NCBI GenBank assembly: GCA_019894975.1
Contig: JAGXNO010000014.1
Span: 1 to 64,000 of the forward strand
Source: Promethearchaeota archaeon
Lineage (GTDB): Archaea > Asgardarchaeota > Lokiarchaeia > Sigyniarchaeales > SOKP01
Direction: 5' to 3'
DNA: 64,000 nucleotides
How positions within the stretch are numbered: the first letter of the stretch is position 1; each line of letters opens with the position of its first letter. Under the pieces are notes generated by a model. That model had not been told where the DNA came from. It did no database searches and saw only the letters and a program-made list of their open reading frames with translations. Made by a program: the position numbers and the translations under genes. This document shows, in pieces, positions 1,614-33,055 of this stretch.

Positions 1614-1730
1614 TTATATCCCTTATCTAATACTACTTCTTTTAAATTCTCAAGTATTTAAAAAAATATTTATTTGATGCTTTTATTTAATCCTTAATTT
1701 AACGATAATTTTGCTCTTAGGTGACCTAAC

Positions 1731-2039
1731 GTAAGCCAACCCACTGTATCGAGGACCTTATCAAAGGCTATATTAAAGCCAGAAGTAAATATTAAATTAA
1801 AGATTTGGAACACCTATTTAACGGGGAAGCTAGTTAAATTCGATAACTATATGAATTTAATTGTTAAAGATGCCAAGGAGATATATTTCGGTCGTGGGGG
1901 AAAACGCAGTAAAGAGCTAGGGACTGTAATGATCAGGGGTGCCAGCGTTATCTTTATTGGTCAGGATCGTGAAAGATTAGTTTTCCAAGGTGGTGCAGAA
2001 GAGGATTTAATGCATCGAGAAGAAAGTGAAGAGGTATAA
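1731..2039 (+). CDS. lsm: Sm-like (Lsm/SmAP) RNA-binding protein, probable non-canonical GTA start
   Basis: Extending the 1851 ORF upstream gives (V)[49 protein letters not shown] (Sm1 motif) followed by [11 protein letters not shown] (Sm2 motif). The gene is upstream of rpl37e, as in many archaea. SD AGGTGA at 1719-1724. Confidence 0.85.
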
Positions 2040-2044
2040 GGAAA

Positions 2045-2266
2045 ATGGGAAAAGGTACACCGAGTAAAGGAAAGAAGAATAAAGCAGCTAGTCATAAAAC
2101 CTGTCGTCGATGTGGTAATCACTCATACCATCGAAGAAAAAAGTTTTGCGCAAGTTGCGGTTTTGGAAGATCTGCAAAATTACGTCAATATGCATGGCGA
2201 AATAGAACTCGTCCGTCCAATGGTCATAAAGCTTTTTATATGAACAAGAAAAAAGTTAGAGCTTAA
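2045..2266 (+). CDS. rpl37e: 50S ribosomal protein L37e
   Basis: [13 protein letters not shown]...CRRCG...SYH...CASCGFGRS zinc finger. Confidence 0.97.
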
Positions 2267-2399
2267 TCTACTGATTTTATTATAAATTCTTATTCTTAAA
2301 GTAGGAAGAGATATTATTAATTATTAAAATTTCAACTAGATATCTTTATATTTTTCATAGCTTATTTGAAATTAATACGAAACCAAATTTTGAATTTAA

Positions 2400-2774
2400 A
2401 TGAATAGTCTAAAAATTCAACATCTCAACAATGAATTAGATAAGTTGGAAGAAATCAGCGATATCATAGGGACTGCTATTGTAAACCGCAATGGGCTATT
2501 GATCGTTTCAAAATTACCAAGAGATATTGAAGATCGAAAATTTTGTGCGATGGCAGCGACTATGTTTGGTGCTATTGAAACAGCAGCATCAACATTGGGA
2601 AGTAATTCAGTCACTAATTTAACAGTAGAATTTAATGATTTTCAACTTATTATTATGGCTGCCGATGAACAAACAATTTTGGTTTCATTATTAAATTTAA
2701 ATGCTAATTTAGGTTTAATATTGATAGAAATTGAAGAAATAATTAAAAATTTAAAGAATACATTAAAAGAGTGA
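2400..2774 (+). CDS. Roadblock/LC7 domain protein
   Basis: 124 aa with IIGTAIVNRNGLLIVS...AMAATMFGAIETAA...ANLGLILIE, a typical roadblock pattern. Confidence 0.9.
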   Translation: MNSLKIQHLNNELDKLEEISDIIGTAIVNRNGLLIVSKLPRDIEDRKFCAMAATMFGAIETAASTLGSNSVTNLTVEFNDFQLIIMAADEQTILVSLLNLNANLGLILIEIEEIIKNLKNTLKE

Positions 2775-2780
2775 TGACAG

Positions 2781-3521
2781 ATCTTAACTGATAATCAAAA
2801 AGAGAGATATGCACGGCAAATTATCTCTCCAGAAATAGGAGAAGAGGGTCAAGAAAAGATTTCTAAGTTAAAAGTACTTCAGATTGGTTGTGGAGGATTA
2901 GGATCACCGTTTTCTATGTATTTAACTGCAGCAGGAATTAATGAATTGACTTTAATAGATAATGATACTTTAGATATATCAAATCTGCAAAGACAAATTC
3001 TTTATAATGAATCTCAACTTGGTGAAGATAAGGTTAATTCTGCGAAAGAGGTATTATCAAGACTTAATTCTGAAGTCAAAATTAACGCATATAAAGATTT
3101 TATAGATCAAAATTCAGTTAAGAAATATCTAGCCGAAAATAAATATGATTTCATTGTTGATTGTAGTGACAATTTCAAAACTAAGTTTCTAGTCAATAAA
3201 ATAGCATTGGAAAATAACCTAAGATGTGTTATTGCGGGAATCAAAGATTTTTATGGTCAAATTATAACAATAAATCCCAAGAAGTCTGCTTGTTATCAAT
3301 GTGTTTTTTCTGAACCTTTAGATACACCTCAAGGAGAGGGCCCTTTACCCGTTATTGGTGTGACTCCAGGCATATTAGGTACCTTACAGGCTTTGGAAGT
3401 AATCAAGACAGCTCTAGGGCTTCCGAATCTTGAAAATAAAGTTTTGATGGTAAATTTATTAGATTTAAGGTTTAACATAATAGATATTATTAAGAATGAA
3501 GCTTGTTTTTGTTCTAAATGA
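2781..3521 (+). CDS. ThiF/MoeB/UbaA-family E1-like adenylyltransferase, probable ATC start
   Basis: The in-frame upstream extension (I)LTDNQKERYARQIISPEIGEEGQEKISKLKVLQIGCGGLGS supplies the RYxRQ and GxGGLG motifs missing from the tracked 2916 ORF. These are followed by DNDTLDISNLQRQ, DCSDN and CYQC. Confidence 0.9.
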   Translation: MLTDNQKERYARQIISPEIGEEGQEKISKLKVLQIGCGGLGSPFSMYLTAAGINELTLIDNDTLDISNLQRQILYNESQLGEDKVNSAKEVLSRLNSEVKINAYKDFIDQNSVKKYLAENKYDFIVDCSDNFKTKFLVNKIALENNLRCVIAGIKDFYGQIITINPKKSACYQCVFSEPLDTPQGEGPLPVIGVTPGILGTLQALEVIKTALGLPNLENKVLMVNLLDLRFNIIDIIKNEACFCSK

Positions 3522-3555
3522 TATTCAAGAAAAAAAGGGGAGATTTTAGGTCTCC

Positions 3556-4117
3556 TTATTCTAAATTTTGTTCAAAAAATTGTTTAAATAACTGCCCTTT
3601 TTTAGAATAGAGTTTGGATGTTTTTGCACCTTCAAGTTTTCCTTTGTAAATCCCTTCTTTTTTTATCGACGCAGGAATTCCAACTGCCAAGCTTCTAGGT
3701 GGTATCTCCTTACCCAGAAGTACTGCTCCTGCTGCAAGTACTGATCCTTCACCTAGCTTTGAACGATGCAGTACATTTGATCCTATTCCAACAACGCAAC
3801 CATCTTCTATTGTACAAGGTCCGTGAATCATTCTGCTGATTGAAGTCAACTCTTCAAAGATTTGCATGATGACCTATAATACAATCGTTTCCTATGTTTA
3901 CATAACTTCCTGCTTCTATATGGATGGTAACATTTTCTTGAATACTTGTATTTTTTCCAATGTTTATTGAGCCCCAATCACCTCGAAGAATTGCTCCGAA
4001 CCAAACGTTAGAGTTTTCTCCTATAACAACATCCCCAATAATAACTGCTGTCGGAGCAATGTAGGCAGATTCATGAATATCAGGCTTTTTTCCTGTTTCT
4101 GGACTGGGTATAATCAT
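3556..4117 (-). CDS. Gamma-carbonic anhydrase / hexapeptide-repeat protein interrupted by a 31-nt insert (3831-3861)
   Basis: The two tracked ORFs (3854-4117 and 3556-3867) are the N- and C-terminal halves of one protein. Removing 3831-3861 gives ...NDCIIGHHAMIHGPCTIEDG... and an intact 176-aa protein. Confidence 0.9.
3831..3861 (-). other. Candidate bulge-helix-bulge (BHB) intron in mRNA
   Basis: Insert AUCUUUGAAGAGUUGACUUCAAUCAGCAGAA contains an internal UUGAAG/CUUCAA stem. Both junctions fall in 3-nt bulges (AA^A, AA^U) flanking the helix AUGC/GCAG. Exon-exon stems AUC/GAU and AGGUC/GACCU are present. Confidence 0.5.
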
Positions 4118-4260
4118 TATATTTCTTCACCATTCGGTATTATTTGAATCTGAAGAATTAAACCATCAATATTAAAGTTTTGAAAAAGAAAAGAAATGAA
4201 AAAAAATATAAATTAAGTATATTCTATTAGCATTCTTTAAATACTTAGTATTGTCACTTG

Positions 4261-4932
4261 TTATTCCTTTTTTTGTAGATTCATTTCTTCTGAAAAGTAT
4301 CTCTTAATGAATGCAGTTAAGAAATTTTTACCGATTAAATCAGCACCTCTATTTATTAATTCTGATCTAGAGATTTCAGCCTGATTATATCTATTCAGAA
4401 CATCTCGCAATTTTTCTAATTCCGGACCAAGATTTTTTGTTAAAAAATCTTCCAGGTCAGCAATCTTCTCCATTACAGCTTCAATTTTTTCTGAATATTC
4501 TCGGAGTAACTCATGAGTACTTTTCAAGTTATTAGATTTTACATTGATATCTTTTAAAACCTCTTTAGCAACCCATTCTTTCTTACTCATAGCCACGATA
4601 GTGATAAGATTGTTTCCTTCAGTCACTTTTTTAACCTTGATAATCAATGCAATTTCTTGCTTATCGTATTTGCCTTCAGCAAATCCCTTGACTCCTGTTA
4701 ATTCGGAATTAATTGGGTCCAACTCTGTTTCTACAATATGAAAATTATTCTGCCTTAATATAGAACTTACCTCGCTTTCGATTTGATTTAATGACATATC
4801 GTTTTCGAAGGAGATTTCTTTTGTTTTCATTGAATGTGTTTTTTCGTCGAAGATTTCTTTTGAAATTGCCTTTTGGATATTATAATCACAATACTGACGG
4901 GTTGATGGGACTTCTAATTTCCTTATTATCAT
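4261..4932 (-). pseudogene. Hypothetical protein, probably the C-terminal remnant of a larger protein
   Basis: 223-aa ORF with an alpha/beta segment (GVKGFAEGKYDKQEIALII) and a helical tail. It has no convincing start or SD and sits in the fragment mosaic. Confidence 0.5.
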
Positions 4933-5042
4933 TTAGTATTACGCCGACGAATTAAAAATCGTTATGGATTATTATCCTAACTCAAATAACCAAGCAATAA
5001 AATAGAAAAAAATAAAAAAAATTAAAGTTAAAATTTACTCAA

Positions 5043-5279
5043 TTATTTCTCAATTCTTTTTTTCTCTTTCTTCTTCTCAAGAATTTCCTTCTCTAAATCT
5101 TCTTTGAATTTTAAAGCATAATCAGCAATACTTTTACATAAGTTTTCAAATTCCATAGGATCAAATTCTTGACCGAGTTCCCGATTCACGTTTAATTTTT
5201 CTAAATCTTCCCACCTCATATTAATGCCTAAAATAGGAGTAATTTGAATATTATGTTTACGCGCAAGTTTTATTTCTGA
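5043..5279 (-). pseudogene. C-terminal fragment of a TIR-domain protein, paralog of 5955-6989
   Basis: Not in the ORF track. Manual translation SEIKLARKHNIQITPILGINMRWEDLEKLNVNRELGQEFDPMEFENLCKSIADYALKFKEDLEKEILEKKKEKKRIEK* aligns with KELRLGFKHNIQIMPILGENMKWEDLE...FGKEFD of the neighbouring gene. A T-rich terminator-like tract follows. Confidence 0.85.
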
Positions 5280-5427
5280 AGAAATTTAGGATGTCGACAA
5301 AAAATGCAGTTGATAATAATCCAAATCCATTAACGCCAAGATAAATAAACACAAAAACATAATATTCGAGAGATACTACATTATTAATCTGCATATTAAA
5401 GCTGAGGGGATCAGCTAAAATATCTTC

Positions 5428-5919
5428 TTAAAAAAATCTATTTTGCAATTGTGTCAATATTTGTCGCTCAAAAGAATCTTCAGAAAAAAGAGTATTATTC
5501 GGAAAGTCTTCTCTAAAGATGATTTTTGTGCTTGGTTGAGAAGTAACATCCTTAAACAAGTTGTCAGGAGATTGATCAGCAATAGCAAATCCAATCCCTC
5601 GGCTCCGATATTCTTTTAGTAAATCAGAGAATATTTTTGCTATCTGTTCTTTCATGATGAAATCCGCATCATCGCTGTTGTTGGTAATAGGTTTTTCTAA
5701 GATAGCGTGAGCCTAATCAATTAAAATCAGATATTTTAACTCCTCAGCTTCATTGTCTTTTGTAACTGATCTTACAAGTTGAAATATCGCATTCACAATC
5801 AGCATTTTCACAAATTTACTGCACATGGATAAATCAAGAAAAATGTTTTCACCATTCAACCAATCAATGACCCAACTTGGCAAATTCTCAGTGATTTTTA
5901 GTACGACATTCAGGACCAA
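5428..5919 (-). pseudogene. HerA/FtsK/VirB4-like ATPase fragment with a nonsense codon in the Walker B motif
   Basis: The two tracked ORFs are one frame: ...KYLILID(TAG)AHAILEK...LLKEYRSRGIGFAIADQSP...QPSTKIIFR. GAG to TAG in DEAH at 5713-5715. No Walker A half is present. Confidence 0.85.
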
Positions 5920-5954
5920 AATCCCTACATTTTTAGATTTAGAAGCTTTTTTTG

Positions 5955-6989
5955 TTATTTAAGTTTTTTAGCTTTACTTGGTCTCTTCTTTCCCCGAATT
6001 TCTTCTTCTAAATCACTTTTCACTTTAATGATATAATCATATAATTCCTCACGAAATCTACCATATTCTTCAGAATCAAATTCTTTTCCGAATTGTCTAC
6101 TAATATCTAACTCCAAATCTTCCCATTTCATCTCTAAATCTTCCCATTTCATGTTTTCTCCTAATATTGGCATGATTTGTATATTGTGTTTAAATCCTAG
6201 TCTTAATTCCTTAACACAATCTTTTGAATCAATGGAATTCTGTGAAGAAAAGAATATTATTAGTTGACTCCGGGGAACTGTTTTATCCATCCAATCATCT
6301 ATATCTCCCACCATATCCGCCTCGCAATAATGAACTTTTGAAATCCCTTTCTGAGATTCTAAATATTTCACAAGATCACTGATTTGATATTTATCAAAAT
6401 CCTTCATAGCATGACTGATAAAAACTCGAATTCCTCTTCCTTTTATGCCCTTCCTAATAACAACAAGAGAAACAATAGCTGCTATAGTTATTATGGAAAT
6501 ACCTATTATTATAAAAAACCAAATATCGAAAGGAGCACTGTTAATAATTTTTTTTGTTATATTAACATCTTTCCAACTAATATTACCCATAGTATCATTA
6601 GCATAAAATCTGATTGTAACAGAACCTTCTGAAATTTCTTCCCAAACTGCTTCATCAATTACTCCTATTAAACTTGTGATCGATATATTAGTAACACCTC
6701 CATCTAATGTATACCAAAATGCATCTAAATTCCCATCAATGATGGTGATCTCATATCCTGGGGCACCTCCCCACTCCTGATTATGGGTTGGGACGTTGAT
6801 CGTAATTTCTGGCCCTAAAATGTCTTTTCTAACAGATATTTCCTCCCAGTTAATATTTCCTGCTGTGTCGTTTGCATAAAATCTAATAATTACTGTCCCA
6901 TTTAACATGTTAGCCCATGAGGTTTGACTTATCGACTTATTTATAGTAAAAGTTGTATTACTTACTCCATCATCAATTGTATACCACAT
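5955..6989 (-). CDS. Ig-like repeats + transmembrane helix + TIR domain protein (N-terminus disrupted)
   Basis: Two WYTxDxG...IRFYANDTxGNIxW repeats, a TM segment IWFFIIIGISIITIAAIVSLVVIRK, then a TIR domain VFISHA...IIFFSSQNSIDSKDCVKEL. No signal peptide; a 10-bp duplication near 6982-7001 breaks the upstream frame. Confidence 0.85.
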   Translation of the reverse strand: MWYTIDDGVSNTTFTINKSISQTSWANMLNGTVIIRFYANDTAGNINWEEISVRKDILGPEITINVPTHNQEWGGAPGYEITIIDGNLDAFWYTLDGGVTNISITSLIGVIDEAVWEEISEGSVTIRFYANDTMGNISWKDVNITKKIINSAPFDIWFFIIIGISIITIAAIVSLVVIRKGIKGRGIRVFISHAMKDFDKYQISDLVKYLESQKGISKVHYCEADMVGDIDDWMDKTVPRSQLIIFFSSQNSIDSKDCVKELRLGFKHNIQIMPILGENMKWEDLEMKWEDLELDISRQFGKEFDSEEYGRFREELYDYIIKVKSDLEEEIRGKKRPSKAKKLK

Positions 6990-7001
6990 AGTACCACATA
7001 G
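6982..7001. repeat. 10-bp tandem duplication (taccacatag x2)
   Basis: Directly visible. It shifts the frame between upstream YDINGIDTMW and downstream MWYTIDDG. Confidence 0.9.
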
Positions 7002-7357
7002 TATCTATTCCATTAATATCATATATAGAAAATATAACTCCAGAAACTATAGTTAAAGTTGCGAATGACGACTCAATAGAATCCGTTATTATTTAATAGT
7101 TTTCAAATTTACTATTGTAATTCTCTTATTATTGTTTAAAACATAAAATAATGTCTTTACAGTTAATCGGTCCTGGAATAATACATTGTTAATATAAAAA
7201 ACTTTTGAAATTACAAATTTGGTAATGTATGCAAAATTAGATATTTAAAATAAAATTTATCAAAAATCACTTGTAAAAAATAAGTAATAAATAGAATAGT
7301 ATTTTAATAATAATTTAACCAATCAATCCATCTTTAAACAATTAAGGGCAAATAGAA

Positions 7358-9085
7358 ATGGAAGGAAATTTACGATTTATATATAAAAAAGAATACTGGT
7401 ACATCAGTGCATTTATTAATACCAGTGAGATTATTGGAGAAACTAAAGCAGAAGAAATAGAAGCTCTATTATTAGAAAGATTAAAAAATCTAAGTGATAA
7501 GGAATTAGAAAAAACAATTACATTTTTAGAAAAACATCCTAATGCTGAAGAAAAGAGAAATACATTAATGGAAATGACTAAATCTATTACAATCGAATGT
7601 GATTGGGAACCTTTTTTCCAAAATTTCCCCTATACTGATGAAAATAATCCCTATACGGAGGATAATAAAGACTTAGTGTATAATACATTAGGTTACTTCA
7701 AATTGGAAGTAGAATATTTTAAAAATGAGCCATACAATAAAGAAAAAGTGACTCCGGATTTAATACAACAAGTACCATATATTGTTCTTGATATTCTTAA
7801 AGAATTCAGTACAAAAAAAGAAAATCAATTTTTACTTCTTGACACGGAGAGTCCAATTTATGTATTCGTGATATCGACTAAAACAACTCCTATTGAAGTT
7901 CAATGGAATGAACAAAATATAAATAAATATAAAAATGATCTCGGATATTGGACACAAATTTATGCTGGTCAATGGCGTGACTATAGTGAAGATCTATTTG
8001 AAAGAAGAGTTAAAAAAAATCTATCAAATCGTTTATCTGAATTGCACTATATTAAGAGAAATTCTGGATTTATTTACATGACAGAAAGAAACTATGAAAC
8101 AGAATTTTTATATATAAAAGACTACCTTTTAGAACCAACCCCAGAAATGAGAGCAGTGCTATTCGCATTAATGACGATCAATCGTTCTCTTGATGTTTTA
8201 TTTATGAAGAGATATTCGGATGTTTTTATGAGCTTAGAGAGAATTGAAAAAAAAACTAATAATCTGAGATTTTTAAGAGGAATGATTCAGACAAAGATGA
8301 GTCTTATCTATAACAAATTGGATAGGAATCCACGTCAACATTATAAAAGAGTCTTAACCCATTTGATAAGAAAATTCCGTATTGAAGAGATTGTGAGAAG
8401 AACAAATAACAAATTCAAGATGTTATATGATTCGATGCAGGAATTATATTTAAAAAGAAGTGAAGAAAACCAAAAAAGAACCAAAAAAGCTCTCTACTTC
8501 CTGAATATATTATTAGGCGCAGGATTTATAGTAGAATTTGTCAATACAATAAGAATTGCTTTTAGCTTAGAAGAAACAGCTCAACCGTCACCTATAATAC
8601 ATGGATTAATTTCAATAATTTTAGGAGCATCCTTATTAATAACTATTGGTTATTTTACATATAGTAGATATAAGTTAAAAGCTTCAGAATTGGGACATAC
8701 TGTTGACGCTGTTATTCAAGATGATAAGCAGAATATAATATTAATTAAAAGAAAATATGCCCCTTACAAAGGAAAATATGCACTTCCTGGTGGATTTATA
8801 AAATACAATGAAGATCCAGAACAAGCTATAATCAGAGAAGTGAGAGAAGAAACGAATCTTGCTATAGAGATCATAAAAAGAATAGGGACATATGATCAAA
8901 AAGGTCGAGATCCACGTGGGAGAATTGTATCAACAGCATTTAGATGTCGTCTTATAAAAGATATTTCCAGAATGAAAGGTGGAGATGATGCCATTGCTAC
9001 TGAAGCTATCCCAATTGCAGAAATCAAAAATATGGATTTAGCTTTTGATCATAAACTTATATTAAAAGATGCGGGTATTTTATAA
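7358..9085 (+). CDS. Membrane protein with large soluble N-terminal domain, two TM helices (CorA-like layout) and C-terminal ADP-ribose pyrophosphatase-type NUDIX domain
   Basis: NUDIX box GGFIKYNEDPEQAIIREVREETNL plus RDPRG, GDDA and LAFDH. Long helices precede the TMs LYFLNILLGAGFIVEFV and IIHGLISIILGASLLITIGYF. The CorA-like call is inferred from architecture only. Confidence 0.75.
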   Translation: MEGNLRFIYKKEYWYISAFINTSEIIGETKAEEIEALLLERLKNLSDKELEKTITFLEKHPNAEEKRNTLMEMTKSITIECDWEPFFQNFPYTDENNPYTEDNKDLVYNTLGYFKLEVEYFKNEPYNKEKVTPDLIQQVPYIVLDILKEFSTKKENQFLLLDTESPIYVFVISTKTTPIEVQWNEQNINKYKNDLGYWTQIYAGQWRDYSEDLFERRVKKNLSNRLSELHYIKRNSGFIYMTERNYETEFLYIKDYLLEPTPEMRAVLFALMTINRSLDVLFMKRYSDVFMSLERIEKKTNNLRFLRGMIQTKMSLIYNKLDRNPRQHYKRVLTHLIRKFRIEEIVRRTNNKFKMLYDSMQELYLKRSEENQKRTKKALYFLNILLGAGFIVEFVNTIRIAFSLEETAQPSPIIHGLISIILGASLLITIGYFTYSRYKLKASELGHTVDAVIQDDKQNIILIKRKYAPYKGKYALPGGFIKYNEDPEQAIIREVREETNLAIEIIKRIGTYDQKGRDPRGRIVSTAFRCRLIKDISRMKGGDDAIATEAIPIAEIKNMDLAFDHKLILKDAGIL

Positions 9086-14178: not shown

Positions 14179-15231
14179 CTAAATAATTTGTTCAATTGGT
14201 ATTTTTTTAATATTGTTAAAAGCAGTTGTTAAACATCTTTCCGCGTCGAATACAATATTATTTATTATATCCGACACACACTCTACACTATCAATAAGTT
14301 CAGCGCTTTGACCTAGAAATGCAACACCCTCTTCAATTTTTCCTTCATATGTTCTTTCTAGTTCAGCTAATTCCCGTTCTACTTTTGCCATTGAAGTCTC
14401 AGCAGCTTGTTTTTCTTCTTTACTTTCAACAAGGTTATGGTTGTCAGCCAGTTTATTTTTCCATACCCTAGCGGGCCCAAAAATTCCTGTTTTCAGCTCA
14501 GTATCTGAAGCAGATGATTCTACAACGATTTTCTTATAATTATCATGAAATTCACATTCCTTGGTTGAGATGAATCTAGTACCCATTGCGATAGCACCCA
14601 CACCCATAGATAAAGCAGATGCTAATCCTTCACCAGTAGCATAACCCCCTGAGGCTATTATCGGAACATTTGGTAGACTTTTCATTATTCGCTGTAATAA
14701 AACTAAGGTGCTTATATTTTCATATGACTGATGTCCCCCACCTTCAGTCCCTGTAATAACTAATCCATCAACACCAGTATCAATAAGTTTTTGTGCTAGA
14801 TAGAGTGAAGGTGCGACATGAAAATGCTTGATATTTGAACCACTCTCTTTTAATTTTTCATAGTGTTTATTATACATCAATCTCGGAGATCCTGCGCTTG
14901 TGATTAAATAAACACACTGTTCCTTAATTCTTGGGTTTTCCATGATAAATTTTGGAAGTTGTCGGCAAAGTTTTATAGCATCTGGTTGTAATCTAGCTGT
15001 TCTTATGTTAAACCCAAAAGGTTTGTCGGTGTGTTCAACAACATATTCCATACTTTTTTTCATTTCATCCAGAGTTACAGTCCCGTGTACCGTAACATGA
15101 CTCAACACACCTAATCCTCCTGCTTCTGATACTGCCACAGTTAATTTAGTTGTATAAAAAGGTCCCATTGGAGCACTTAAAATTGGATGTTTAATCCCTA
15201 ACATTCTTGTAATGTCTGTTTCTATTACCAT
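14179..15231 (-). CDS. Nitronate monooxygenase / FabK-like flavin oxidoreductase
   Basis: LGIKHPILSAPM, AVSEAGGLG, GTEGGGH, IIASGG, MGTRF. Confidence 0.9.
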   Translation of the reverse strand: MVIETDITRMLGIKHPILSAPMGPFYTTKLTVAVSEAGGLGVLSHVTVHGTVTLDEMKKSMEYVVEHTDKPFGFNIRTARLQPDAIKLCRQLPKFIMENPRIKEQCVYLITSAGSPRLMYNKHYEKLKESGSNIKHFHVAPSLYLAQKLIDTGVDGLVITGTEGGGHQSYENISTLVLLQRIMKSLPNVPIIASGGYATGEGLASALSMGVGAIAMGTRFISTKECEFHDNYKKIVVESSASDTELKTGIFGPARVWKNKLADNHNLVESKEEKQAAETSMAKVERELAELERTYEGKIEEGVAFLGQSAELIDSVECVSDIINNIVFDAERCLTTAFNNIKKIPIEQII

Positions 15232-15897: not shown

Positions 15898-15900
15898 AAA

Positions 15901-20484: not shown

Positions 20485-20693
20485 AAAAAACATTAAATAA
20501 AGAGGATATAAAAAGGTTTTTGAAATGCTTTAAAGGTGTTTGAATGGTGAAAATAAAGTAGTTTAAATATATTGATATAAATGAAAAAACAGTGGATTCA
20601 CTTGCCCGTTGTTAGAATTTGACATATAATGGGTTTTGCTTTAAAAAAGGTTTAAATAACAGATATTTGGTTACCTATTTAGAAAATTAGGAG

Positions 20694-21098
20694 TTGAGGA
20701 TTATTATCTCACAAGTAGTTAAATTTGATGAAAGTGCTCTTAAAACCATAGAACAAGATTACAAAAAGACTGTGTGTTCAGAGGTACAAGCGAAGTTAAT
20801 TCGCGGGATAGCACAAATTATTTGTGAATTCATAAATATTCCAGAACAGGCTATGAATGGTGCTGCTTTGAATGCTTTAAGAGAATGGGAATCCATAAAT
20901 GATAAAAACGTTAGCAAAATCGCAGACATGCCAATAGGAAAAAGATTAAATGCAGTAAAAGAAATCTTTAGTATTGGTAAGAGAATAATCAAGAAAATGG
21001 CATCAAATCCTAAAGATAAAAATGAAGACTTGATTGATATTTCTTTTGAAAGAGCTTTCAGGTTCTTTCTTAATTATTTCTATCAACATCAACATTGA
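20694..21098 (+). CDS. Hypothetical protein
   Basis: 134-aa helical ORF. The true start may be ATC near 20706, 6 nt after TGAGG. Confidence 0.7.
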   Translation: MRIIISQVVKFDESALKTIEQDYKKTVCSEVQAKLIRGIAQIICEFINIPEQAMNGAALNALREWESINDKNVSKIADMPIGKRLNAVKEIFSIGKRIIKKMASNPKDKNEDLIDISFERAFRFFLNYFYQHQH

Positions 21099-25264: not shown

Positions 25265-25664
25265 AGTGTCATTTTTTGAATATTGGAAATAAAATATCTT
25301 TACTCATATAAAATTAGAATTAGAAATTATAATATTTAATTATTGCAGTTGCAAAATCTATTTTGTTCAAATAGTTTTCGATATAAATAGAACATTATTT
25401 TGCACATCAATTTATTCTTATGCATAATACTTATTTTAGCTATTTAAATTTTGATTTTTTTTCTTTTTTCTCTGTGAATTTGGATAAATTAAAGGGATAA
25501 CTTTAAATATTACCGATACAGAATTGAGACTTGGGATTTTTCTATCTCATTTATTATTGAAACATTGAGTTAGTGTGAATTTCAAGAGTATATGTAAATA
25601 TGTATAACTCTATTATTGTAATTCAATCTTAAAGGGAAACATAAAAGCTCCTATATGCTTGACC

Positions 25665-26645
25665 TTATTTTGATTGATAGAAATCCATAAAGTTAATGAC
25701 TTCTTCATAACTTGTTTTTGGCATTGGTCCAAAGGATTGGACCTTTAATGCACCTACAGCATTAGCAAATTTAGTTGCTTTTGTTAAATCCCACTTATTT
25801 AAATATGCTACGATAAAAGCCCCTCCAAATGAGTCTCCTGCCCCAGTTGGATCGATTTCATCAGCTTTATATCCTGGAATGTGTGTTCCATGTTTTTGGT
25901 CTTTTGAAAATATCATCGATCCTCTTTTACCTTGTTTTAAAACTACTATTTCAGGGCCCATATCTAATAATTTAATACAGGCTTCTTTTTCCCCTTTAAC
26001 CCCAGCTAACATCTCTGCTTCTTCTCCACTTGGAAGTAAGATTGTTGTATTCTCCAACACAGGTTTGCTAATATTCAATATAATTTCTATGTCTAGCATC
26101 TCGGGCCTAAGATTTGGATCAAATGAGATTAGTACATTTGGATTTTTCTCCTTGGCTAATCTAATCGCCTTATAACATGCTTCCCGAGATTGTTTACTGA
26201 TTGAAAGAGAACTCCCCATTATATGAAGATTTTTTATATTCTCAAAATAATTCTCTTTCACATTGAGAGGAGAAGTATCTCCCGCAGCACCCGCAGCAAA
26301 AATGAACTTACGAGTGCCATCAGAGTTATACTGATTAAAAGCTATCCCTGTAGTTTTATCTTTAGCTACCTGTATCTGAGAAATATCAACTCCATCTTCT
26401 ATTAATTTCTCTTGAATACAATTACCAAACTCATCATCACCAACTATCCCTATAAATCCTACTGTTATACCAAATGGTTTTCCCATACGAGCAGCAGAAT
26501 CAATAAAAATTGCGGGGGCTCCACTTGGAAAGGGCCCCTTATAGAAAGATCCAATTTGACCATGAGGTATATCAACTTCAGTCCGCATAATCTCAACTAA
26601 TAATTCACCAACTGAAATAATATCTGGGGTCGTTCTTATTTTCAT
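25665..26645 (-). CDS. PfkB-family sugar kinase
   Basis: PSGAPAI, VGDDEFG, SFDPNLR, DPTGAGDSF. Confidence 0.93.
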   Translation of the reverse strand: MKIRTTPDIISVGELLVEIMRTEVDIPHGQIGSFYKGPFPSGAPAIFIDSAARMGKPFGITVGFIGIVGDDEFGNCIQEKLIEDGVDISQIQVAKDKTTGIAFNQYNSDGTRKFIFAAGAAGDTSPLNVKENYFENIKNLHIMGSSLSISKQSREACYKAIRLAKEKNPNVLISFDPNLRPEMLDIEIILNISKPVLENTTILLPSGEEAEMLAGVKGEKEACIKLLDMGPEIVVLKQGKRGSMIFSKDQKHGTHIPGYKADEIDPTGAGDSFGGAFIVAYLNKWDLTKATKFANAVGALKVQSFGPMPKTSYEEVINFMDFYQSK

Positions 26646-26736
26646 TTATAATCTTCTTCAACTAATTAAAATAAACTTATTAGTTTTTCATAACGTATTA
26701 AAAAGGTAAGAGAATAAGATTATGAGAGCTTGCGAT

Positions 26737-27645
26737 TTACCCAAATTTTTGGCGAAAGGATTCAATTGTAGAAGAAATTTCATTTAAATGTATTTTTAAT
26801 TCTTTAGGGTTGGTTCCTTTTAATTTATCTAAATTTCCGATAACATCTTTCAGTTCGTCAACCCATAAATTCATTAAAATTTCTCTTTCTTTATTTTTAC
26901 ATGCTAATTTAATTTCATCATTAATCCATTCTTTAGCGTTCTCAAATATCTGCTTTTTAAGCACATCTACTGTTATTTTGATCAAATCCTGTTGACTTTT
27001 AAGATCTTCCAGCTTAGGTTTAAGATTATTTCTAAATTCAGTGGTATCTTCCTCGAAGTTTTTTAACATATCTCTAAGTACTTCTTCTTTTGTATCAAAC
27101 TCTTCTTTCATCCCTTGAAATTTAAGTGAAAAGTCACTATTTACTGCTTGAATGCTTTCAATTATGATTTTGATTTTGTCTTCAACATTGTTGAATTGAT
27201 TCTTAATAGTATCCTCAAGTTTTTTAGATGAGTTTCCTAATTCCTCTGTGATAGTTGCGTAATTTCCATCTATATTAACTTTAAGGGTATTGACTTTTTC
27301 TTTTAACTCTTGATCAAAGATATTAGTAATATCTTCAATCTTTTTGTTAATATTATCAATTTTTTCTTTCAATCCCTCCTCGAGTTTGTCTAATCTATCA
27401 GATGAATCTTGTTCAATTTTATTAATTTGGCTAGTTAAATTCTGATTAAGTTTATTTACTTCATCATCAATCTTCTGTCCAATTTTTTTTAATTGATCAT
27501 TTAATTTTTTATCAGTTTTATTCACTTGATCAAGAGTTTTCTGATCAAGCGATTTGATTTGTTGATTCAACTTCTGATCAATTTTCTTTATCTGTTCCTT
27601 CAATCCCTGTAATTCTTTTTGTGGAATTTCTTCTGAATTTGAAAT
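26737..27645 (-). CDS. Coiled-coil protein with 11-residue repeats, probable ATT start
   Basis: SD GGAGGGA, then TAA immediately followed by ATT TCA AAT (SNSEEIPQKELQG), in frame with the tracked 27603 ORF. Hendecad repeats IKKIDQKLNQQ/IKSLDQKTLDQ/VNKTDKKLNDQ. Confidence 0.75.
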   Translation of the reverse strand: MSNSEEIPQKELQGLKEQIKKIDQKLNQQIKSLDQKTLDQVNKTDKKLNDQLKKIGQKIDDEVNKLNQNLTSQINKIEQDSSDRLDKLEEGLKEKIDNINKKIEDITNIFDQELKEKVNTLKVNIDGNYATITEELGNSSKKLEDTIKNQFNNVEDKIKIIIESIQAVNSDFSLKFQGMKEEFDTKEEVLRDMLKNFEEDTTEFRNNLKPKLEDLKSQQDLIKITVDVLKKQIFENAKEWINDEIKLACKNKEREILMNLWVDELKDVIGNLDKLKGTNPKELKIHLNEISSTIESFRQKFG

Positions 27646-27665
27646 TTAAATCCCTCCTTAGTCTA

Positions 27666-28712
27666 TTACACGTTATATATATTATTTTGATGAATTGTAT
27701 CTTTATTACTTTCTTGATTTTCTTTTTTGAGTTGAGAGTTGATTATCATTAACTCATTTTCCTCTCTATTTAATTTTTGAAGCAATTCACTGTTTTGTTC
27801 AGAATCGCTTTTAGATGAATTTAATAAAGCTGCTAGTGTATCAATTACCTCTCCTGTTGATTTAATATTAGACTTCTTTATATGAGCCAAAGCTTTTTCT
27901 AACTCAGAAAGGTTTATTAAAAACTGATCGAGTATATTATCCTTCTGATGCCTAACTTTATCTATTTCTTGTTGGATAAATTCATTATATTTTAATTCAT
28001 TAATTTCCTCATCAGTTGAATCTTTAGGTTTGTGTTCAGTTTTTATCTTCATTGATTTTAATGCAGAATCAATGGATTTTAGGTTAATCAATTTACTCTT
28101 CAAAGATTTCTCATCTTTATGGATTGATTTTAAAAAATCTTCAGCTGAATTTTCTTTAATAAGATCGGGTGTTAGTAACTCTGCTCTCTGCAGATAAGTA
28201 TATAATAATAGTTCAAAACATTCTTTAACATTCAAAGAAGTTTTTGCAGACATCAGAATAAAATGATCCCTCTCACTAAAGAAATTTTGAAGGAGATTTT
28301 TAATACCAACATTCTCATCAAAGAGGTCTAGCTTATTGCCAACAAAAAGTGAAATACATTCATCTGTCGATTTATTTATTTTTTCCTCAAAGTCCTTTTT
28401 AAGATTCTGTAAGGTAACTTCTGGTTTAGTTAAGTCAAAAACGAGTAAAGCCAGATCGGCATTAGAGTAATGAGCGGGATTATAGGGATTGAAGGATTTT
28501 TGACCCCCCAGATCCCATACAGTTAATCTAATTATTTTCGATGTTGTGCTCAATGAATATTCCTTTTTAAATGTAAGACTCCCAATTGTAGGCATATATG
28601 TCTCAGGAAATTCCTCTCCTAAGAAAGTGTTTATAATAGCCGTTTTTCCTACTTCTCCATTTCCAAGAACAATCAGTTTTAAGTTAATTATGTCTGCCAA
28701 TCGATTAATCAT
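27666..28712 (-). CDS. Rab/Ras-like small GTPase with C-terminal coiled coil
   Basis: G1 GNGEVGKT, G2 YMPTIG, G3 WDLGGQ, G4 NKLD, G5 SAK, then a helical tail of about 170 aa. Confidence 0.92.
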   Translation of the reverse strand: MINRLADIINLKLIVLGNGEVGKTAIINTFLGEEFPETYMPTIGSLTFKKEYSLSTTSKIIRLTVWDLGGQKSFNPYNPAHYSNADLALLVFDLTKPEVTLQNLKKDFEEKINKSTDECISLFVGNKLDLFDENVGIKNLLQNFFSERDHFILMSAKTSLNVKECFELLLYTYLQRAELLTPDLIKENSAEDFLKSIHKDEKSLKSKLINLKSIDSALKSMKIKTEHKPKDSTDEEINELKYNEFIQQEIDKVRHQKDNILDQFLINLSELEKALAHIKKSNIKSTGEVIDTLAALLNSSKSDSEQNSELLQKLNREENELMIINSQLKKENQESNKDTIHQNNIYNV

Positions 28713-29020
28713 CTAGAAAAGCAATTTTTATAAATTTGTAAAAATTTTGAAAGGTGTCTAGGTCATTTCTTAATTACTATTTAATTCTTAAAAACAAAAT
28801 AGGATACAGATATTTAAACTTATTTAGAACAAGCTTTCTTCCTTCTGAGTATGAATCGATTTGAATCAAAAAACAGCTGATATAATTAAAAAATTGTTAG
28901 GTCACTTTTACCTTCTTTTCTAAGCAATGCTTTTAAAGAGTTAAAAACTTTTTATTTTTTCCATTTCTTATAGGATCAATATTAAAATAAAATTTAAAAT
29001 AATAATAGTTGTTTAAGGAA

Positions 29021-30058
29021 ATGGTTATAAAGACAAAAGTTACAGAAATGTTAGGGATTAAACATCCAATAATTGCTGCACCTATGGGACCCTTTTATAC
29101 AAAAGAGTTGGCAGTAGCGGTGTCTGAAGCGGGAGGATTAGGAGTTTTAAGCCATACTAATATGTTTGGAAAGAATAGTATCGAAGAAATGAAGAGAGAT
29201 ATGGAGTTTGTGATAGAACATACAGATAAACCATTCGGATTTAATATTAGGACTGCTAGATTACAACTCGATGCGGCAAATCTTTGTCGTCAAATTCCAA
29301 AATTCATTATGGACAACCCAAAACTCAAAGAACAATGTATATATGCTATTACCAGCGCAGGATCCTCAAAAACACTTCCAAAAGCAAAACCTTACCAGAA
29401 ATTGAAAGAAGGGGGCTCAAATATTAAACATTTCCATGTAGCCCCAGCTCTATGGTTAGCGGATAAATGTGTTGCTTCCGGGGTTGATGGGATGGTTGTT
29501 ACTGGTTGGGAAGGTGGTGGTCACCAGAGTTATGAAAAAATAAGCTCTTTAGTTCTTCTGCAAGAAGTTAAACAAAAACACCCCGATTTTCCAGTTGTAG
29601 CATGTGGAGGGTTTGCAAGTGGGGAGGGTTTAGCTTCAGCTTTAGCAATGGGTGCAGGAGCAATTGCAATGGGATCTAGATTTATCGCATCGAAAGAGAG
29701 CGAATTTCACGATAAATACAAAAACATAGTACCCCCTGCAAAATCAAGTGATACTACATGGGTGACAGGAGTTTTAGGACCGATTCGTTTATGGAAAAAT
29801 CAATATTCATTACATCATGGAGTTGTGTCATCTAAAGAAGAAAAAATGGCATTAGAAGCTCAAATCACCCCCCAAATGGTAATGGAAGACCAAAAACATT
29901 ATGAAATGACGTATGATGGTGGTATTGAGGAGGGTGCTGTTCTTCTAGGACAAAGTATTGGAGTTATTAATTCAATAGATAATGTGCAACACATAATTAA
30001 TGATATTGTTACGGTTGCTGAAAAAAGGTTAAAGGAAGCTAATTCATTTATTTTTTAA
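29021..30058 (+). CDS. Nitronate monooxygenase / FabK-like flavin oxidoreductase (paralog of 14179-15231)
   Basis: LGIKHPIIAAPM, GWEGGGH, VVACGG, MGSRF. Confidence 0.9.
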   Translation: MVIKTKVTEMLGIKHPIIAAPMGPFYTKELAVAVSEAGGLGVLSHTNMFGKNSIEEMKRDMEFVIEHTDKPFGFNIRTARLQLDAANLCRQIPKFIMDNPKLKEQCIYAITSAGSSKTLPKAKPYQKLKEGGSNIKHFHVAPALWLADKCVASGVDGMVVTGWEGGGHQSYEKISSLVLLQEVKQKHPDFPVVACGGFASGEGLASALAMGAGAIAMGSRFIASKESEFHDKYKNIVPPAKSSDTTWVTGVLGPIRLWKNQYSLHHGVVSSKEEKMALEAQITPQMVMEDQKHYEMTYDGGIEEGAVLLGQSIGVINSIDNVQHIINDIVTVAEKRLKEANSFIF

Positions 30059-30139
30059 CTTCCTATCAAACTACGTTAAATACTTATATTGTTTTTTTTC
30101 TTATTCTATTATATTTTAAACAAAATCATAATTCTTAAG

Positions 30140-30379
30140 ATGAATGCAAAAAAAAAAATAGATCTAATTTCTGAAGTGCTAGACAGATATGATGATGGTG
30201 TTTGTTTTTATTGCGGTAGCACTCTAAATGGTAATATGCAAAATGAAGATTTCGATGAAGGTTATTCTGATGATTGGTGTCCTGATTGCAGTGAAAGCAT
30301 TGATCCTAATGATGATTGGGAAGAAGCATGCCTTATTGCGATTGAGAAACTGATTCATGGCAAAAAGTTCGAGCCCTAG
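30140..30379 (+). CDS. Small acidic zinc-finger protein
   Basis: CFYC...CPDC pair. ATG at 30140 is preferred over the tracked TTG. Confidence 0.7.
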   Translation: MNAKKKIDLISEVLDRYDDGVCFYCGSTLNGNMQNEDFDEGYSDDWCPDCSESIDPNDDWEEACLIAIEKLIHGKKFEP

Positions 30380-30411
30380 TTTTAATATCGTTCTGTAAAG
30401 AGAGATAAAGA

Positions 30412-30984
30412 GTGGAACAAAATTTAAAAATTAATGTGGTTGGAACAAGTAGTTCAGGGAAAACAACATTTTGTAGGAAATTATCTAGGATTTTATCTAT
30501 ACTCCATATCGAAATGGATGCACTATTCTGGGGCCCAAATTGGTGTTTACCTACTGATGAAGAATTTTTTCCAAAATTACGTTTAGCTTTAAAAGGGGAC
30601 AGTTGGATATTGGATGGAAACTATACAAGAAGCATCCCCATAAAATGGGAAAGTGTTACTACCATTATTTGGCTTGATTTTAGTTTCCTTCGTACATTGT
30701 ATCAAGCAGTTAATAGAGCAATTAAAAGAATTATTACAAGGGAAGAAATCTGGCCTGGTACTGGAAATAGGGAGGCGTTAAAGAGTTTGTTTAGCAAGGA
30801 TTCTATTGTACTTTTTATGATAAAATCTTATAGAAAGTTCAGACCATTCTATGAACCTTTAATTAAATCTGGTGATTATTCAAATATACAATTTATTAGG
30901 CTTAGATCACCTAGGGAAGTCAAATTATTTCTTACTAGAGTTAAAAAAAATAGAGATTTAATTTTTGACAGAACCACATCCTAA
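30412..30984 (+). CDS. Adenylate-kinase-like P-loop protein (FlaR/topology-modulation type)
   Basis: VVGTSSSGKTT, IEMDALFW, WILDGNY, IWLD. Confidence 0.85.
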   Translation: MEQNLKINVVGTSSSGKTTFCRKLSRILSILHIEMDALFWGPNWCLPTDEEFFPKLRLALKGDSWILDGNYTRSIPIKWESVTTIIWLDFSFLRTLYQAVNRAIKRIITREEIWPGTGNREALKSLFSKDSIVLFMIKSYRKFRPFYEPLIKSGDYSNIQFIRLRSPREVKLFLTRVKKNRDLIFDRTTS

Positions 30985-31007
30985 ATAAATTTGCAAAGCT
31001 CAATATC

Positions 31008-31469
31008 CTAAATTTTTCCTTGGCAGAAACAATCTGAGGAGTTTGAAATCTCTTCTCCACAGGGACACATTTTTGGGTGGGAGTATTTAACACAGATTTT
31101 ATTGATTGTATTACATGAGAAAAGTAAATTAAATTTTTCACTTTCGTTGTGAGCATCTTCAGGATTTAATCCCAATTCGTTGAATAATAAAAGTTCAAGA
31201 AGACGATTATGCCTATTCAATTCTTTTGCAAGCTCAAAACCTGATTTAGTTAATAGAACTTCATGGTATGGTTTATATTCTACATAACCTTGATTTTTAA
31301 GCCTTTTAATACAACTTCCCAACGTAGAATGAGAGATTCCAGTCTTATGAAATACGTCTAAGTGACTTAAAAAAGGATCATTATCTAACATCTGCTTAAT
31401 CTCTCCAATTTTTAAACTCTTTCCCGATTTTAGTAAAGTTTTGACAACAATATAATCTATATCAATCAT
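31008..31469 (-). CDS. DtxR/MntR-family metal-dependent repressor
   Basis: IKRLKNQGYVEYKPY..V.LT..G...A....RHNRLLE, AHNESE, HPKMCPCG. Confidence 0.88.
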   Translation of the reverse strand: MIDIDYIVVKTLLKSGKSLKIGEIKQMLDNDPFLSHLDVFHKTGISHSTLGSCIKRLKNQGYVEYKPYHEVLLTKSGFELAKELNRHNRLLELLLFNELGLNPEDAHNESEKFNLLFSCNTINKICVKYSHPKMCPCGEEISNSSDCFCQGKI

Positions 31470-31487
31470 TTCAAATCTTTTTTATTT

Positions 31488-32246
31488 TTAATGGTTATGC
31501 ATACCTAAAGATAACAAAACCCACATTAATGCTATTCCAACAATAATAAGTAATAATTGTTGAATAATATATTTTAATTGAGTATTTTTATGTAACTCCG
31601 GAGTTAAATCAGATAAGGCTATATATAAAAAGCTTGCTGCTGAAACGGCTAACAAGAACGGAACGAAAACATCTAAGGGATCTAATAGAAAATATGCAAC
31701 GATTGCAGCGGGAATTGTGGTAGAACTCGAAAGGGTATTAAATAATATCGCTTTCTTTTTTGAATATCCCGAGTGTAACAATATAGCAAAATCCCCTGTT
31801 TCCTGTGGGATTTCATGAGAAATAATTGTTATACCTACAATAATTCCAAGATGGAATTCGGTTAGAAACGCAGCAGTTATAACAATACCATCAGTGAGAT
31901 TATGTAATGCATCTCCTAAAAGTATAATTGGTCCTGAAGCATGGGAATGAACTTCACACGTGGTATCACGACAATTTCTCCAAGTAATAATTTTCTCTAA
32001 AAAGAAAAATCCAATAATTGCGATTAGAACAGTTGGCATAATGAAATGAGGTTCACCACCAGAGCTCTCAATAGCTTCAGGTATTAATCCCAATAAAGAT
32101 GCAGTAAGTAATACTCCTGTGGCAAAAGATAATAAAGAGGGTACTAGTTTTTTCTGTACATCCTCTTTTAATGCCATAAAAAGCGCTGCTGCGGCTATCG
32201 CACCAATACTGCCCATAATGCTAAATAGGATAATCCAGATAAGAAT
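31488..32246 (-). CDS. ZIP-family metal transporter, probable ATT start
   Basis: LLSFATGVLL, GDALHNLTDG, HEIPQETGDF. The upstream extension (I)LIWIILFSIMG completes TM1. SD AGGTGA lies 6 nt before the ATT. Confidence 0.93.
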   Translation of the reverse strand: MLIWIILFSIMGSIGAIAAAALFMALKEDVQKKLVPSLLSFATGVLLTASLLGLIPEAIESSGGEPHFIMPTVLIAIIGFFFLEKIITWRNCRDTTCEVHSHASGPIILLGDALHNLTDGIVITAAFLTEFHLGIIVGITIISHEIPQETGDFAILLHSGYSKKKAILFNTLSSSTTIPAAIVAYFLLDPLDVFVPFLLAVSAASFLYIALSDLTPELHKNTQLKYIIQQLLLIIVGIALMWVLLSLGMHNH

Positions 32247-32271
32247 TTTATTTCACCTTGGTTTAATAAAA

Positions 32272-32291
32272 ATTTACGATCCTTCGTAAAT
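32272..32291. promoter_or_regulatory. Perfect inverted repeat ATTTACGA-N4-TCGTAAAT, putative DtxR/MntR operator
   Basis: Lies between a BRE/TATA-like GAAAAGTTTAAG (minus strand, about 32317-32328) and the SD of the ZIP-DtxR operon. Confidence 0.6.
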
Positions 32292-32446
32292 CAAGTAACG
32301 AGTAGAGAATATTACTCTTAAACTTTTCTTATAACAAATTGACCGTAAAAAGAATTATTTTTGAATTTCCTTTCTTATTGAGTAAATTAATTTTATAAAG
32401 GCTTAAAAATTCAAGATTCTTAGATAACTATAAAAAGGCGATTTTA

Positions 32447-33055
32447 ATAATAGAAAACAATAAAACATCTAAAAATGGTAATTTCAAAGAGCACCTTACA
32501 CCGAGATTTATCCTTTCTCTTTCAATAATTGGTGTGTTTTCTGGGCTTATTTGCGTACTAACGATAATTATATCTATTCCAATTCCTGCTACTCAAGGTT
32601 TTATTAATATTGGTGATGCTGGAGTAATGATTTGTGGATTATTGTTTGGCCCAGTTATTGGGGGTCTTTCTGGAGGAATAGGGTCATCACTTGCTGATGT
32701 TTTATTAGGATATACAATATATGCTCCTGGAACTTTTATTATTAAAGGCTTAGAAGGTTTTTTAGTAGGCATTATTGCGAATCCAAAAAGAAATTATCAA
32801 AAAATTAATTATAGAGATATCTTAGCAGTTCTAGCTGGGGGATCTTTAATGGCATATGGGTATTTTTTGTACGAGATATTCATTTTTGGTGTTCCGGCTG
32901 CAGTATATGAATTGATTTTAAATGGTATAATTCAATTTGGTGTAGGGGGTGTAATTGCTCTTATATTTATTGCTACTGCAAGAAAACCCATAATTGATAA
33001 CCTACCACAGGTTTTTGACAAAGTTTTTTCTTCAAAAGAAAAAAATAAAAATTAA
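32447..33055 (+). CDS. ECF transporter S component, probable ATA start (32447 or 32450)
   Basis: IPIPATQGFINIGD, GGIGSSLADV..GY..YAPGTFIIKG.EG. The upstream frame adds the rest of TM1 (PRFILSLSIIGV). AGGCGA at 32436-32441. Confidence 0.88.
   Translation: MIENNKTSKNGNFKEHLTPRFILSLSIIGVFSGLICVLTIIISIPIPATQGFINIGDAGVMICGLLFGPVIGGLSGGIGSSLADVLLGYTIYAPGTFIIKGLEGFLVGIIANPKRNYQKINYRDILAVLAGGSLMAYGYFLYEIFIFGVPAAVYELILNGIIQFGVGGVIALIFIATARKPIIDNLPQVFDKVFSSKEKNKN

Follow-up and report, generated by a model that had tools for sequence, protein, structure and literature searches.

Near-cognate ATT, ATA and ATC codons behind Shine-Dalgarno motifs as probable translation starts in a Promethearchaeota genus

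Where does translation begin in a gene that has no ATG, GTG or TTG ahead of its conserved N-terminal domain? This question is raised by five genes in a 64,000-nt stretch (the window; bases 1-64000 of contig C55) of a Promethearchaeota metagenome-assembled genome (MAG; 3.93 Mb in 175 contigs, 31.6% GC, 8.6% contamination), Promethearchaeota being the Asgard phylum formerly named Lokiarchaeota. The genes encode an Lsm/Sm-like protein, an E1-like enzyme of the ThiF family, a coiled-coil protein, a ZIP metal transporter, and an ECF transporter S component (ECF-S), and an earlier note on this DNA had placed the start of each at a non-canonical codon behind a Shine-Dalgarno (SD) motif. Here, ATG, GTG, and TTG are termed canonical starts, and ATT, ATC, and ATA are collectively termed ATH (AUH in mRNA). 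Our comparisons indicate that the ATT, ATA, and ATC codons (and the GTA of the Lsm gene) are very probably real translation start sites, habitual and conserved in this genus. Most likely, such starts serve the five intact genes of the window and at least ~50 genes genome-wide, with ATH starts estimated at roughly one per ten SD-led canonical genes and the gene for the initiation factor aIF1 predicted to be among them.

Five probable start sites in the window

The 16S rRNA of this genome ends in ...GGATCACCUCCU, with the tail GGATCACCTCCT, from which the SD consensus is GGAGGTGATC. At all five sites, the non-canonical codon lies 5-7 nt behind a match to the anti-SD, and this complementarity stands at the spacing used by canonical starts; the two reference genes that the earlier note had taken as its yardstick, guaB (TGGTGG-N6-ATG at 53598) and NMO (AGTGA-N6-ATG at 15231), read as it had given them. 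Genome-wide, an exact SD 5-mer at spacing 4-9 precedes the canonical start of 518 out of 3291 open reading frames (ORFs) of at least 100 codons (~16%), and the spacing peaks at 5-8 for canonical starts and at 6 for ATH. In the Lsm, E1-like, coiled-coil, and ZIP genes an in-frame stop lies 0-2 codons upstream of the proposed start, as had been claimed, and no in-frame canonical start was found between the upstream stop and the conserved N-terminal domains. We took the orthologous loci from 24 congeneric species and from 16 genomes of three other families of the same order, and compared the E1-like start codon across 76 Promethearchaeota MAGs as well. For all five sites, the same codon position in orthologues is either canonical (ATG, GTG, or TTG) or a conserved near-cognate ATH, which is the alignment that the earlier note had asked for.

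In the E1-like gene, a TGA TGA pair at 2772-2777 is in frame and is followed by ATC at N6 from GAGTGA. At this exact codon, ATH is present in 21 of 21 congeners (ATT in 16, ATC in 4, and ATA in 1), and the start lies 6 nt behind (A/G)GTGA, with a 6-nt spacer that varies freely and often contains a second stop. Among the 76 MAGs, the same codon is ATT in 37, ATC in 6, ATA in 4, ATG in 23, TTG in 1, and GTG in 1 (47 ATH versus 25 canonical), and the protein continues with (M/I)LTExQKxRYSRQ in all of the MAG orthologues. Moreover, the SD is stronger in the ATH-bearing than in the ATG-bearing orthologues (mean -8.1 versus -5.0 kcal/mol), with 98% of the former versus 39% of the latter at or below -5 kcal/mol. 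That this codon is a conserved ATH, with no ATG among the 21 congeners, suggests selection rather than sloppiness.

A recoding event might also feed these frames, either by frameshifting from an out-of-frame ATG (ATG 2774 for the E1-like gene and ATG 32475 for the ECF-S gene) or by TGA readthrough of the upstream gene. ATG 2774 does overlap the stop of the upstream Roadblock gene, 4 nt before the E1-like frame, and the Roadblock and E1-like ORFs share one frame, with TGA TGA between them. We nevertheless give this explanation almost no credence, as the out-of-frame ATG is missing in most congeners, no slippery site is conserved, the E1-like spacer varies and contains one to three stops (TGA TGA, TGA TAA, or TGA TAA TAA), and the Lsm, ZIP, and ECF-S genes have no same-strand upstream gene. 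For the E1-like gene, both the frameshift from ATG 2774 and readthrough from the Roadblock gene were ruled out by the orthologues.

The GTA codon of the Lsm gene aligns with ATG (18) or GTG (2) in 20 out of 22 congeners, and in the remaining two an ATG stands one or two codons upstream; no SD precedes Lsm in any of the 22 congeners searched. Only CCT, AAC, and GTA lie between the in-frame stop and codons 2-13. These codons show 83% identity in protein and 57% identity in DNA to the congener orthologues, with 7.3 synonymous versus 2.0 non-synonymous codon changes, and, because protein identity exceeds DNA identity and the changes are mostly synonymous, they have been kept as coding sequence. 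The same AGGTGACCTAAC-GTA is present in four independent assemblies (three from ENA and one from Logan; 99.5-100% identical), and a sister lineage with ~87% DNA identity, found in three JGI metagenomes, has AGGTGACATAAC-ATA, i.e., AGGTGA-N6-ATA. GTA is therefore not a consensus error, which was one of the findings that the earlier note had said would undo its claim. The Lsm start has likely passed from an ATG without SD, through an SD with ATA, to an SD with GTA, a series in which the start codon and its SD would be co-evolving. GUA unites two mismatches that are each tolerated singly (in GUG and in AUA), and we infer that initiation occurs at the Lsm GUA.

A conserved AT-rich box, GAATAATTTT, whose end is 18 nt upstream of the Lsm start (window 1690-1730), is shared by all congeners, none of which has an SD here. 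This arrangement points to a leaderless mRNA, or one with a very short leader, in the congeners; in the present genome, the SD sits between the AT-rich box and the GTA.

The same comparisons bear on whether the codons reflect assembly or consensus errors (the true codons being ATG or GTG) or decaying pseudogenes that are already dead. The fragmentation of the MAG into 175 contigs, its 8.6% contamination, and the single odd case of GTA would all fit such errors. However, dozens of species, each assembled independently, have ATH at the same site, the GTA is found in four independent assemblies with ATA in the sister lineage, and the ORFs are intact, with their protein conserved through synonymous change. 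This explanation, which we regard as extremely unlikely, thus appears largely refuted already.

At the ZIP start, orthologues have ATT (12), ATC (1), ATG (7), or TTG (1), with no clear difference in SD strength between those bearing ATH and those bearing ATG. The next ATG downstream, 32216, is the start chosen by the gene caller and would cost 10 residues, and its Met is replaced by Leu or Phe in most orthologues. At the coiled-coil site, ATA (8), ATT (6), or ATG (3) is found behind GGTGA-N5/6, and the next canonical codon downstream, TTG 27603 (a loss of 14 residues), reads TTA in the closest orthologue. For the ECF-S gene, where 32447 and 32450 had both been considered, ATA 32450 aligns with TTG behind an identical AAGGCGAT-N7 in the two closest orthologues (G003 and G008), one of which has TAA just upstream of the TTG, and the more distant orthologues start with ATG or GTG. 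Because the closest orthologues have AAGGCGAT-N7-TTG, we prefer 32450 over 32447; with the ECF-S start read as AAGGCGAT-N7-ATA 32450, the five non-canonical starts behind SD motifs stand as described. In the other two genes, the first ATG lies deep within the protein, at residue 41 of Lsm (ATG 1851, inside the LSM domain) and at residue 46 of the E1-like enzyme (ATG 2916, past the start of the ThiF domain at residue 10). The extensions therefore hold half of the LSM domain and the ThiF nucleotide-binding motif, in line with the claim that they carry essential parts. All of the features are listed in Table 1.

Table 1. Proposed start sites, SD motifs, and genes in the window (positions in the window)
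Feature	Position	Strand	Remarks
Lsm SD AGGTGA	1719..1724	+	its TGA (1722-1724) is the in-frame stop
Lsm/Sm-like gene, proposed GTA start 1731, 102 aa	1731..2039	+	PF01423 at residues 15-77; SD-N6-GTA
E1-like SD GAGTGA	2769..2774	+	shares bases with the stop of the preceding Roadblock/LC7 gene (2400-2774)
E1-like (ThiF family) gene, proposed ATC start 2781, 246 aa	2781..3521	+	PF00899 at residues 10-242
Coiled-coil SD GGAGGGA	27651..27657	-	9 nt past the stop of the Ras-family GTPase gene (27666-28712)
Coiled-coil gene, proposed ATT start 27645, 302 aa	26737..27645	-	TAA directly upstream; SD-N5-ATT
ZIP SD AGGTGA	32253..32258	-	its TGA is the in-frame stop
ZIP metal transporter gene, proposed ATT start 32246, 252 aa	31488..32246	-	PF02535; SD-N6-ATT
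ECF-S SD-like AAGGCGAT	32435..32442	+	TTG follows the same motif and N7 in the two closest orthologues
ECF transporter S component gene, proposed ATA start 32450, 201 aa	32450..33055	+	PF07155 at residues 23-177; SD-N7-ATA
Possible sixth case: AGGAG, then ATT 20700, ATT 20703, or ATC 20706	20689..20708	+	131-135 aa ORF, no Pfam family

In the possible sixth case, the sole canonical codon, TTG 20694, abuts AGGAG. A further candidate, GGTGA-N6-ATC at the start of a 225-codon ORF, lies just past the window at C55:68061 (+). Two of the ATH-started genes stand directly behind genes of the eukaryotic-signature type, namely the E1-like gene behind Roadblock/LC7 and the coiled-coil gene behind the Ras-family GTPase. 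Elsewhere, the window encodes a TIR-domain protein (5955-6989, minus strand) and a protein with an MCP signalling domain (44518-45372, minus strand).

ATH codons behind SD motifs across the genome

To count such starts genome-wide, we tested every codon from the upstream in-frame stop to the first canonical start in the 3291 long ORFs (at least 100 codons); a codon was skipped if any of the four codons after it was a canonical start. An exact SD 5-mer at spacing 6 preceded 37 of 2456 ATH codons versus 21 of 14365 other codons (odds ratio 10.4, p=1.3e-17), so that the SD-spacing count proposed in the earlier note gave a ~10-fold enrichment of ATH. All three codons contributed (ATT, 16/1168; ATA, 14/979; ATC, 7/309), and permutations of the same composition were flat (TTA and TAT together, 2/1759; AAT, 0/1071; the five permutations of ATC, 0/1260). 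The count of ATH sites at spacing 5-7 was 62 versus 12.8 expected, an excess of ~49, which equals 9.5% of the 518 SD-led canonical genes and at least 1.5% of the 3291 ORFs; two other SD definitions, looser or stricter, gave 8.7% and 14% of the SD-led canonical genes. Because two of the five window sites escape the strict definition, the real total probably exceeds this, at perhaps 80-100 genes (2-3%) by extrapolation. The zone method also under-detects spacing 5, at which the GTG of GGTGA falls in frame. A sharper spacing optimum for ATH than for ATG was not significant (chi-square p=0.16). Outside ATH, CTG was found in 3 of 78 cases at spacing 6-7, and there were single ACG cases too.

These counts alter two parts of the earlier account. 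Its rate of about 5 in 55 genes is too high as a genome average, which is ~1.5-3% of genes; a value of ~9-14% holds relative to the SD-led genes, rather than 9% of all genes. Further, the codon set is not arbitrary, and consists essentially of ATT, ATA, and ATC, with a few CTG and ACG cases and GTA as a single case.

Two of the window genes, E1-like and coiled-coil, follow the upstream gene within 0-20 nt, as would be expected if ATH served just re-initiating ribosomes that have finished an upstream gene (translational coupling) and not de novo initiation. Lsm, ZIP, and ECF-S, in contrast, are first genes, and genome-wide the end of a same-strand ORF lies within 40 nt of 15 out of 62 ATH sites versus 114 out of 316 canonical SD-led starts. 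With these proportions, ATH starts are not tied to translational coupling, and we consider it very unlikely that coupling accounts for them.

We also examined the predicted domains of the 20 candidates that lie farthest from the next canonical codon (40-97 codons away; given as 17 ATH, one CTG, and one ACG). In 13 of the 20, a Pfam domain begins within residues 1-32 of the proposed start, and the proposed start was contradicted in none. The domains in these extensions comprise the TFB zinc ribbon, V-ATPase subunit E, the AOR N-terminal domain, a GPN-loop GTPase, a RagA/Gtr1-like GTPase, a Ras-like GTPase, Roadblock/LC7, a CoA-binding domain, an alpha/beta hydrolase, a FaeA-like winged helix-turn-helix, and DUF7347 (below the Pfam cut-off), as well as, behind codons other than ATH, zf-AN1 (CTG) and a 4Fe-4S dicluster domain (ACG). 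Several of the genome-wide ATH candidates are small GTPases or Roadblock proteins, which may reflect an enrichment or the mere commonness of these families in the genome.

The domain positions matter for the possibility that a downstream canonical codon is the real start and the upstream in-frame stretch is an untranslated leader. Downstream codons are what gene callers pick, and such products are on record; the coiled-coil and ZIP proteins, moreover, would lose just their 14 and 10 residues. Yet downstream starts would delete half of the LSM domain, the ThiF nucleotide-binding motif, and first transmembrane helices, they have no SD, and orthologues do not keep their Met, Leu, or Val as a start; in 13 of the 20 further candidates, the Pfam domain begins in the extension itself. 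The chance that the downstream codons are the true starts therefore seems slight. Gene finders instead appear to cut these proteins short, because the proposed starts lie at ATH or GTA upstream of the chosen codon, and the truncation that the earlier note had predicted is seen in public collections, where the very truncated forms of the E1-like enzyme (201 aa), Lsm (62 aa), and the ZIP transporter (242 aa) are listed as called genes.

Related genomes were sampled over 800 kb each. In G065 (another Asgard family, GC 31.5%), ATH was not significantly enriched (4 versus 1.6 expected, p=0.10), and in G038 (another family of the same order, GC 31.3%), the enrichment was weak (5 versus 1.4 expected, p=0.03). 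Low GC alone does not create the ATH signal, because G065 is not significant at like GC, and the trait is, in these genomic comparisons, strongest in this genus and family.

Several points weigh against reading these codons as genuine starts. GTA is a single case with two mismatches to the initiator anticodon, and it may be that the Lsm GTA initiates very weakly, or that it is a recent lesion in a gene now being lost; an Lsm start at ATA 1770 would retain the Pfam-matched core, the sole counterpoint being the conserved codons 2-13. The related species are not independent, so that p-values on the orthologue sets are overstated, including for the comparison of E1-like SD strength. Chance alone would yield ~13 of the 62 ATH sites, i.e., ~20% of the candidate lists, ATH starts without an SD are invisible to an SD-anchored count, and the outgroup comparison depends on the 800-kb samples.

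Initiator tRNA and aIF1

If the ATH codons are starts, they could be read either by the ordinary initiator or by a tRNA of their own. The assembly contains one initiator-type tRNA (contig C104, complement 32242-32373), with the anticodon CAU in the loop CUCAUAA, an A1:U72 pair, and an anticodon stem with three G:C pairs, all of which are canonical. Parsed by hand, it has two putative introns, of which the first follows position 37 and the second separates the variable region from the T arm; ARAGORN places a single 50-nt intron differently. No paralogue of it was found in the assembly at up to 4 mismatches, and a pattern search of the assembly returned no initiator-like tRNA with another anticodon. 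Only 15-29 tRNAs were found by ARAGORN (with or without introns) and the Rfam tRNA model, and the detected set is thus incomplete. ARAGORN also predicts a tRNA-SeC(TCA), so that some TGA codons may be decoded as selenocysteine.

A dedicated initiator, or an elongator tRNA-Ile, that reads AUH and makes proteins begin with Ile would explain why all three Ile codons are used interchangeably, and could have escaped detection in an incompletely detected tRNA set. We assign next to no weight to such a reader, as the assembly shows one initiator-type tRNA (CAU) and, with up to 4 mismatches allowed, no paralogue of it; ATH and ATG replace one another at the same sites, and the CTG, ACG, and GTA cases do not fit. 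The simplest reading is Met-tRNAi on AUH, held by the SD duplex, because a single initiator is present without a paralogue of another anticodon. The SD would pair with the 16S rRNA 3' end and put the near-cognate AUU, AUA, or AUC in the P site (for Lsm, a GUA, one step further from AUA), and the ordinary initiator tRNA (CAU) most likely initiates there despite the third-position mismatch. Such AUH starts may give a lower or a regulated output.

Among the components that the earlier note had proposed to inspect for fidelity substitutions, we examined aIF1 and the initiator tRNA; the tRNA, as described above, is canonical. The aIF1 (SUI1) gene, at C104:8813-9139, has no canonical start before its zinc knuckle and has an ATT start at 8819; the factor's own gene thus carries a weak near-cognate start. 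All 22 congeners with a match share this ATT, and the SD-like leader before it, AAAGGTTGTGATAAGAGAGT (20 nt), is nearly invariant among the 22, far above other leaders, which suggests that it may be a regulatory element. In other genera of the order, aIF1 starts with ATA (two) or with TTG or GTG (three more), and never with ATG in the seven read; elsewhere in the phylum, the start is mostly ATG or GTG, with ATA or CTG in three families. Further, G47F, L62A, and C68S (numbered from the ATT start) are present in the aIF1 of this family and in that of family f2, at positions where 30 other Asgard aIF1 proteins have G47 in 30/30, L62 in 30/30, and C68 in 26/30. We treat these as possible fidelity-related changes, and as a lead rather than as evidence.

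For the earlier account of SD-positioned initiation with relaxed start-codon fidelity, the SD-positioned non-canonical start holds across the genome and the genus, while relaxed fidelity, which had been deduced, is not supported as worded. This lineage may tolerate AUH starts through a weaker or tunable aIF1-dependent discrimination, and a feedback loop in which aIF1 acts through its own AUU start is plausible by analogy. That start-codon selection has been re-tuned in this Loki-type order, with the AUH starts as a regulated set governed by aIF1, is a tentative proposal that we hold to be rather less probable than its opposite.

Known systems and significance

Two genes of Escherichia coli, infC (encoding IF3) and pcnB, are AUU-initiated. 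The cases described here resemble them in having a near-cognate AUU behind an SD, presumably read by the normal initiator tRNA, and resemble infC also in that the gene of a factor rejecting non-canonical starts is itself so started (infC in bacteria and, by its sequence, aIF1 here). Unlike in E. coli, where a handful of genes is concerned, there would be at least ~50 per genome, with all three AUH codons and genus-wide conservation, in an archaeon with eukaryote-type factors (aIF1, aIF1A, and aIF2). Bacterial infC autoregulates through its AUU start (discussed in PMC4705826), and the feedback proposed here is by analogy with it.

In PMC6237735, aIF1 is described as discriminating against non-canonical starts in Sulfolobus, and eIF1 as autoregulating via its poor initiation context (Ivanov et al. 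2010, cited therein). The aIF1 gene of this genus would be similar, in that a fidelity factor, here the eIF1 homologue, has a weak start on its own mRNA. The weak start of eIF1, however, is an AUG in a weak Kozak context, whereas the predicted start of aIF1 is an AUU behind an SD-like leader.

Among Asgard archaea, a 'rare ATT start codon' has been proposed for AtubA of a Kariarchaeaceae (Heimdall-type) MAG (PMC13394414). The case is alike in that an Asgard gene was called too short and an upstream ATT, at a plausible distance from a ribosome-binding site, restores the first beta-strand; it differs in being a single gene mentioned in passing and called rare, without a genome-wide or comparative analysis. 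Our search of open-access papers and bioRxiv found no systematic description of such starts, the AtubA remark (PMC13394414) being the only mention.

The same codon set is found among the initiators of NCBI table 11, which include ATT, ATC, ATA, and CTG, and animal mitochondria start at AUA and AUU. Table 11, however, lists possibilities and not frequencies, and mitochondria have no SD and use another initiator and decoding system. Archaea with eukaryote-type initiation factors had been assumed to use AUG, GUG, and UUG. What appears to be new is (i) the scale, with about one such start per ten SD-led canonical genes, conserved in the genus and including core information-processing genes, and (ii) the host, an archaeon with eukaryote-type initiation factors.

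As a practical consequence, the public protein sets of eukaryotes' closest prokaryotic relatives hold truncated versions of conserved proteins, and gene callers restricted to ATG, GTG, and TTG will repeat this error. Some of the truncated proteins are eukaryotic-signature proteins that researchers express and solve, AtubA (PMC13394414) being one such case. A lineage with habitual SD-AUH starts, aIF1 included, would be a natural system for studying the start-codon stringency of e/aIF1. If the AUH starts are indeed a set governed by aIF1, a scarcity of aIF1 would make the AUH-initiated genes rise together, including those for TFB, V-ATPase subunit E, small GTPases, Roadblock proteins, the E1-like enzyme, and aIF1 itself, and such a response would be an archaeal counterpart, perhaps a forerunner, of the eIF1-dependent control of weak start sites in eukaryotes.

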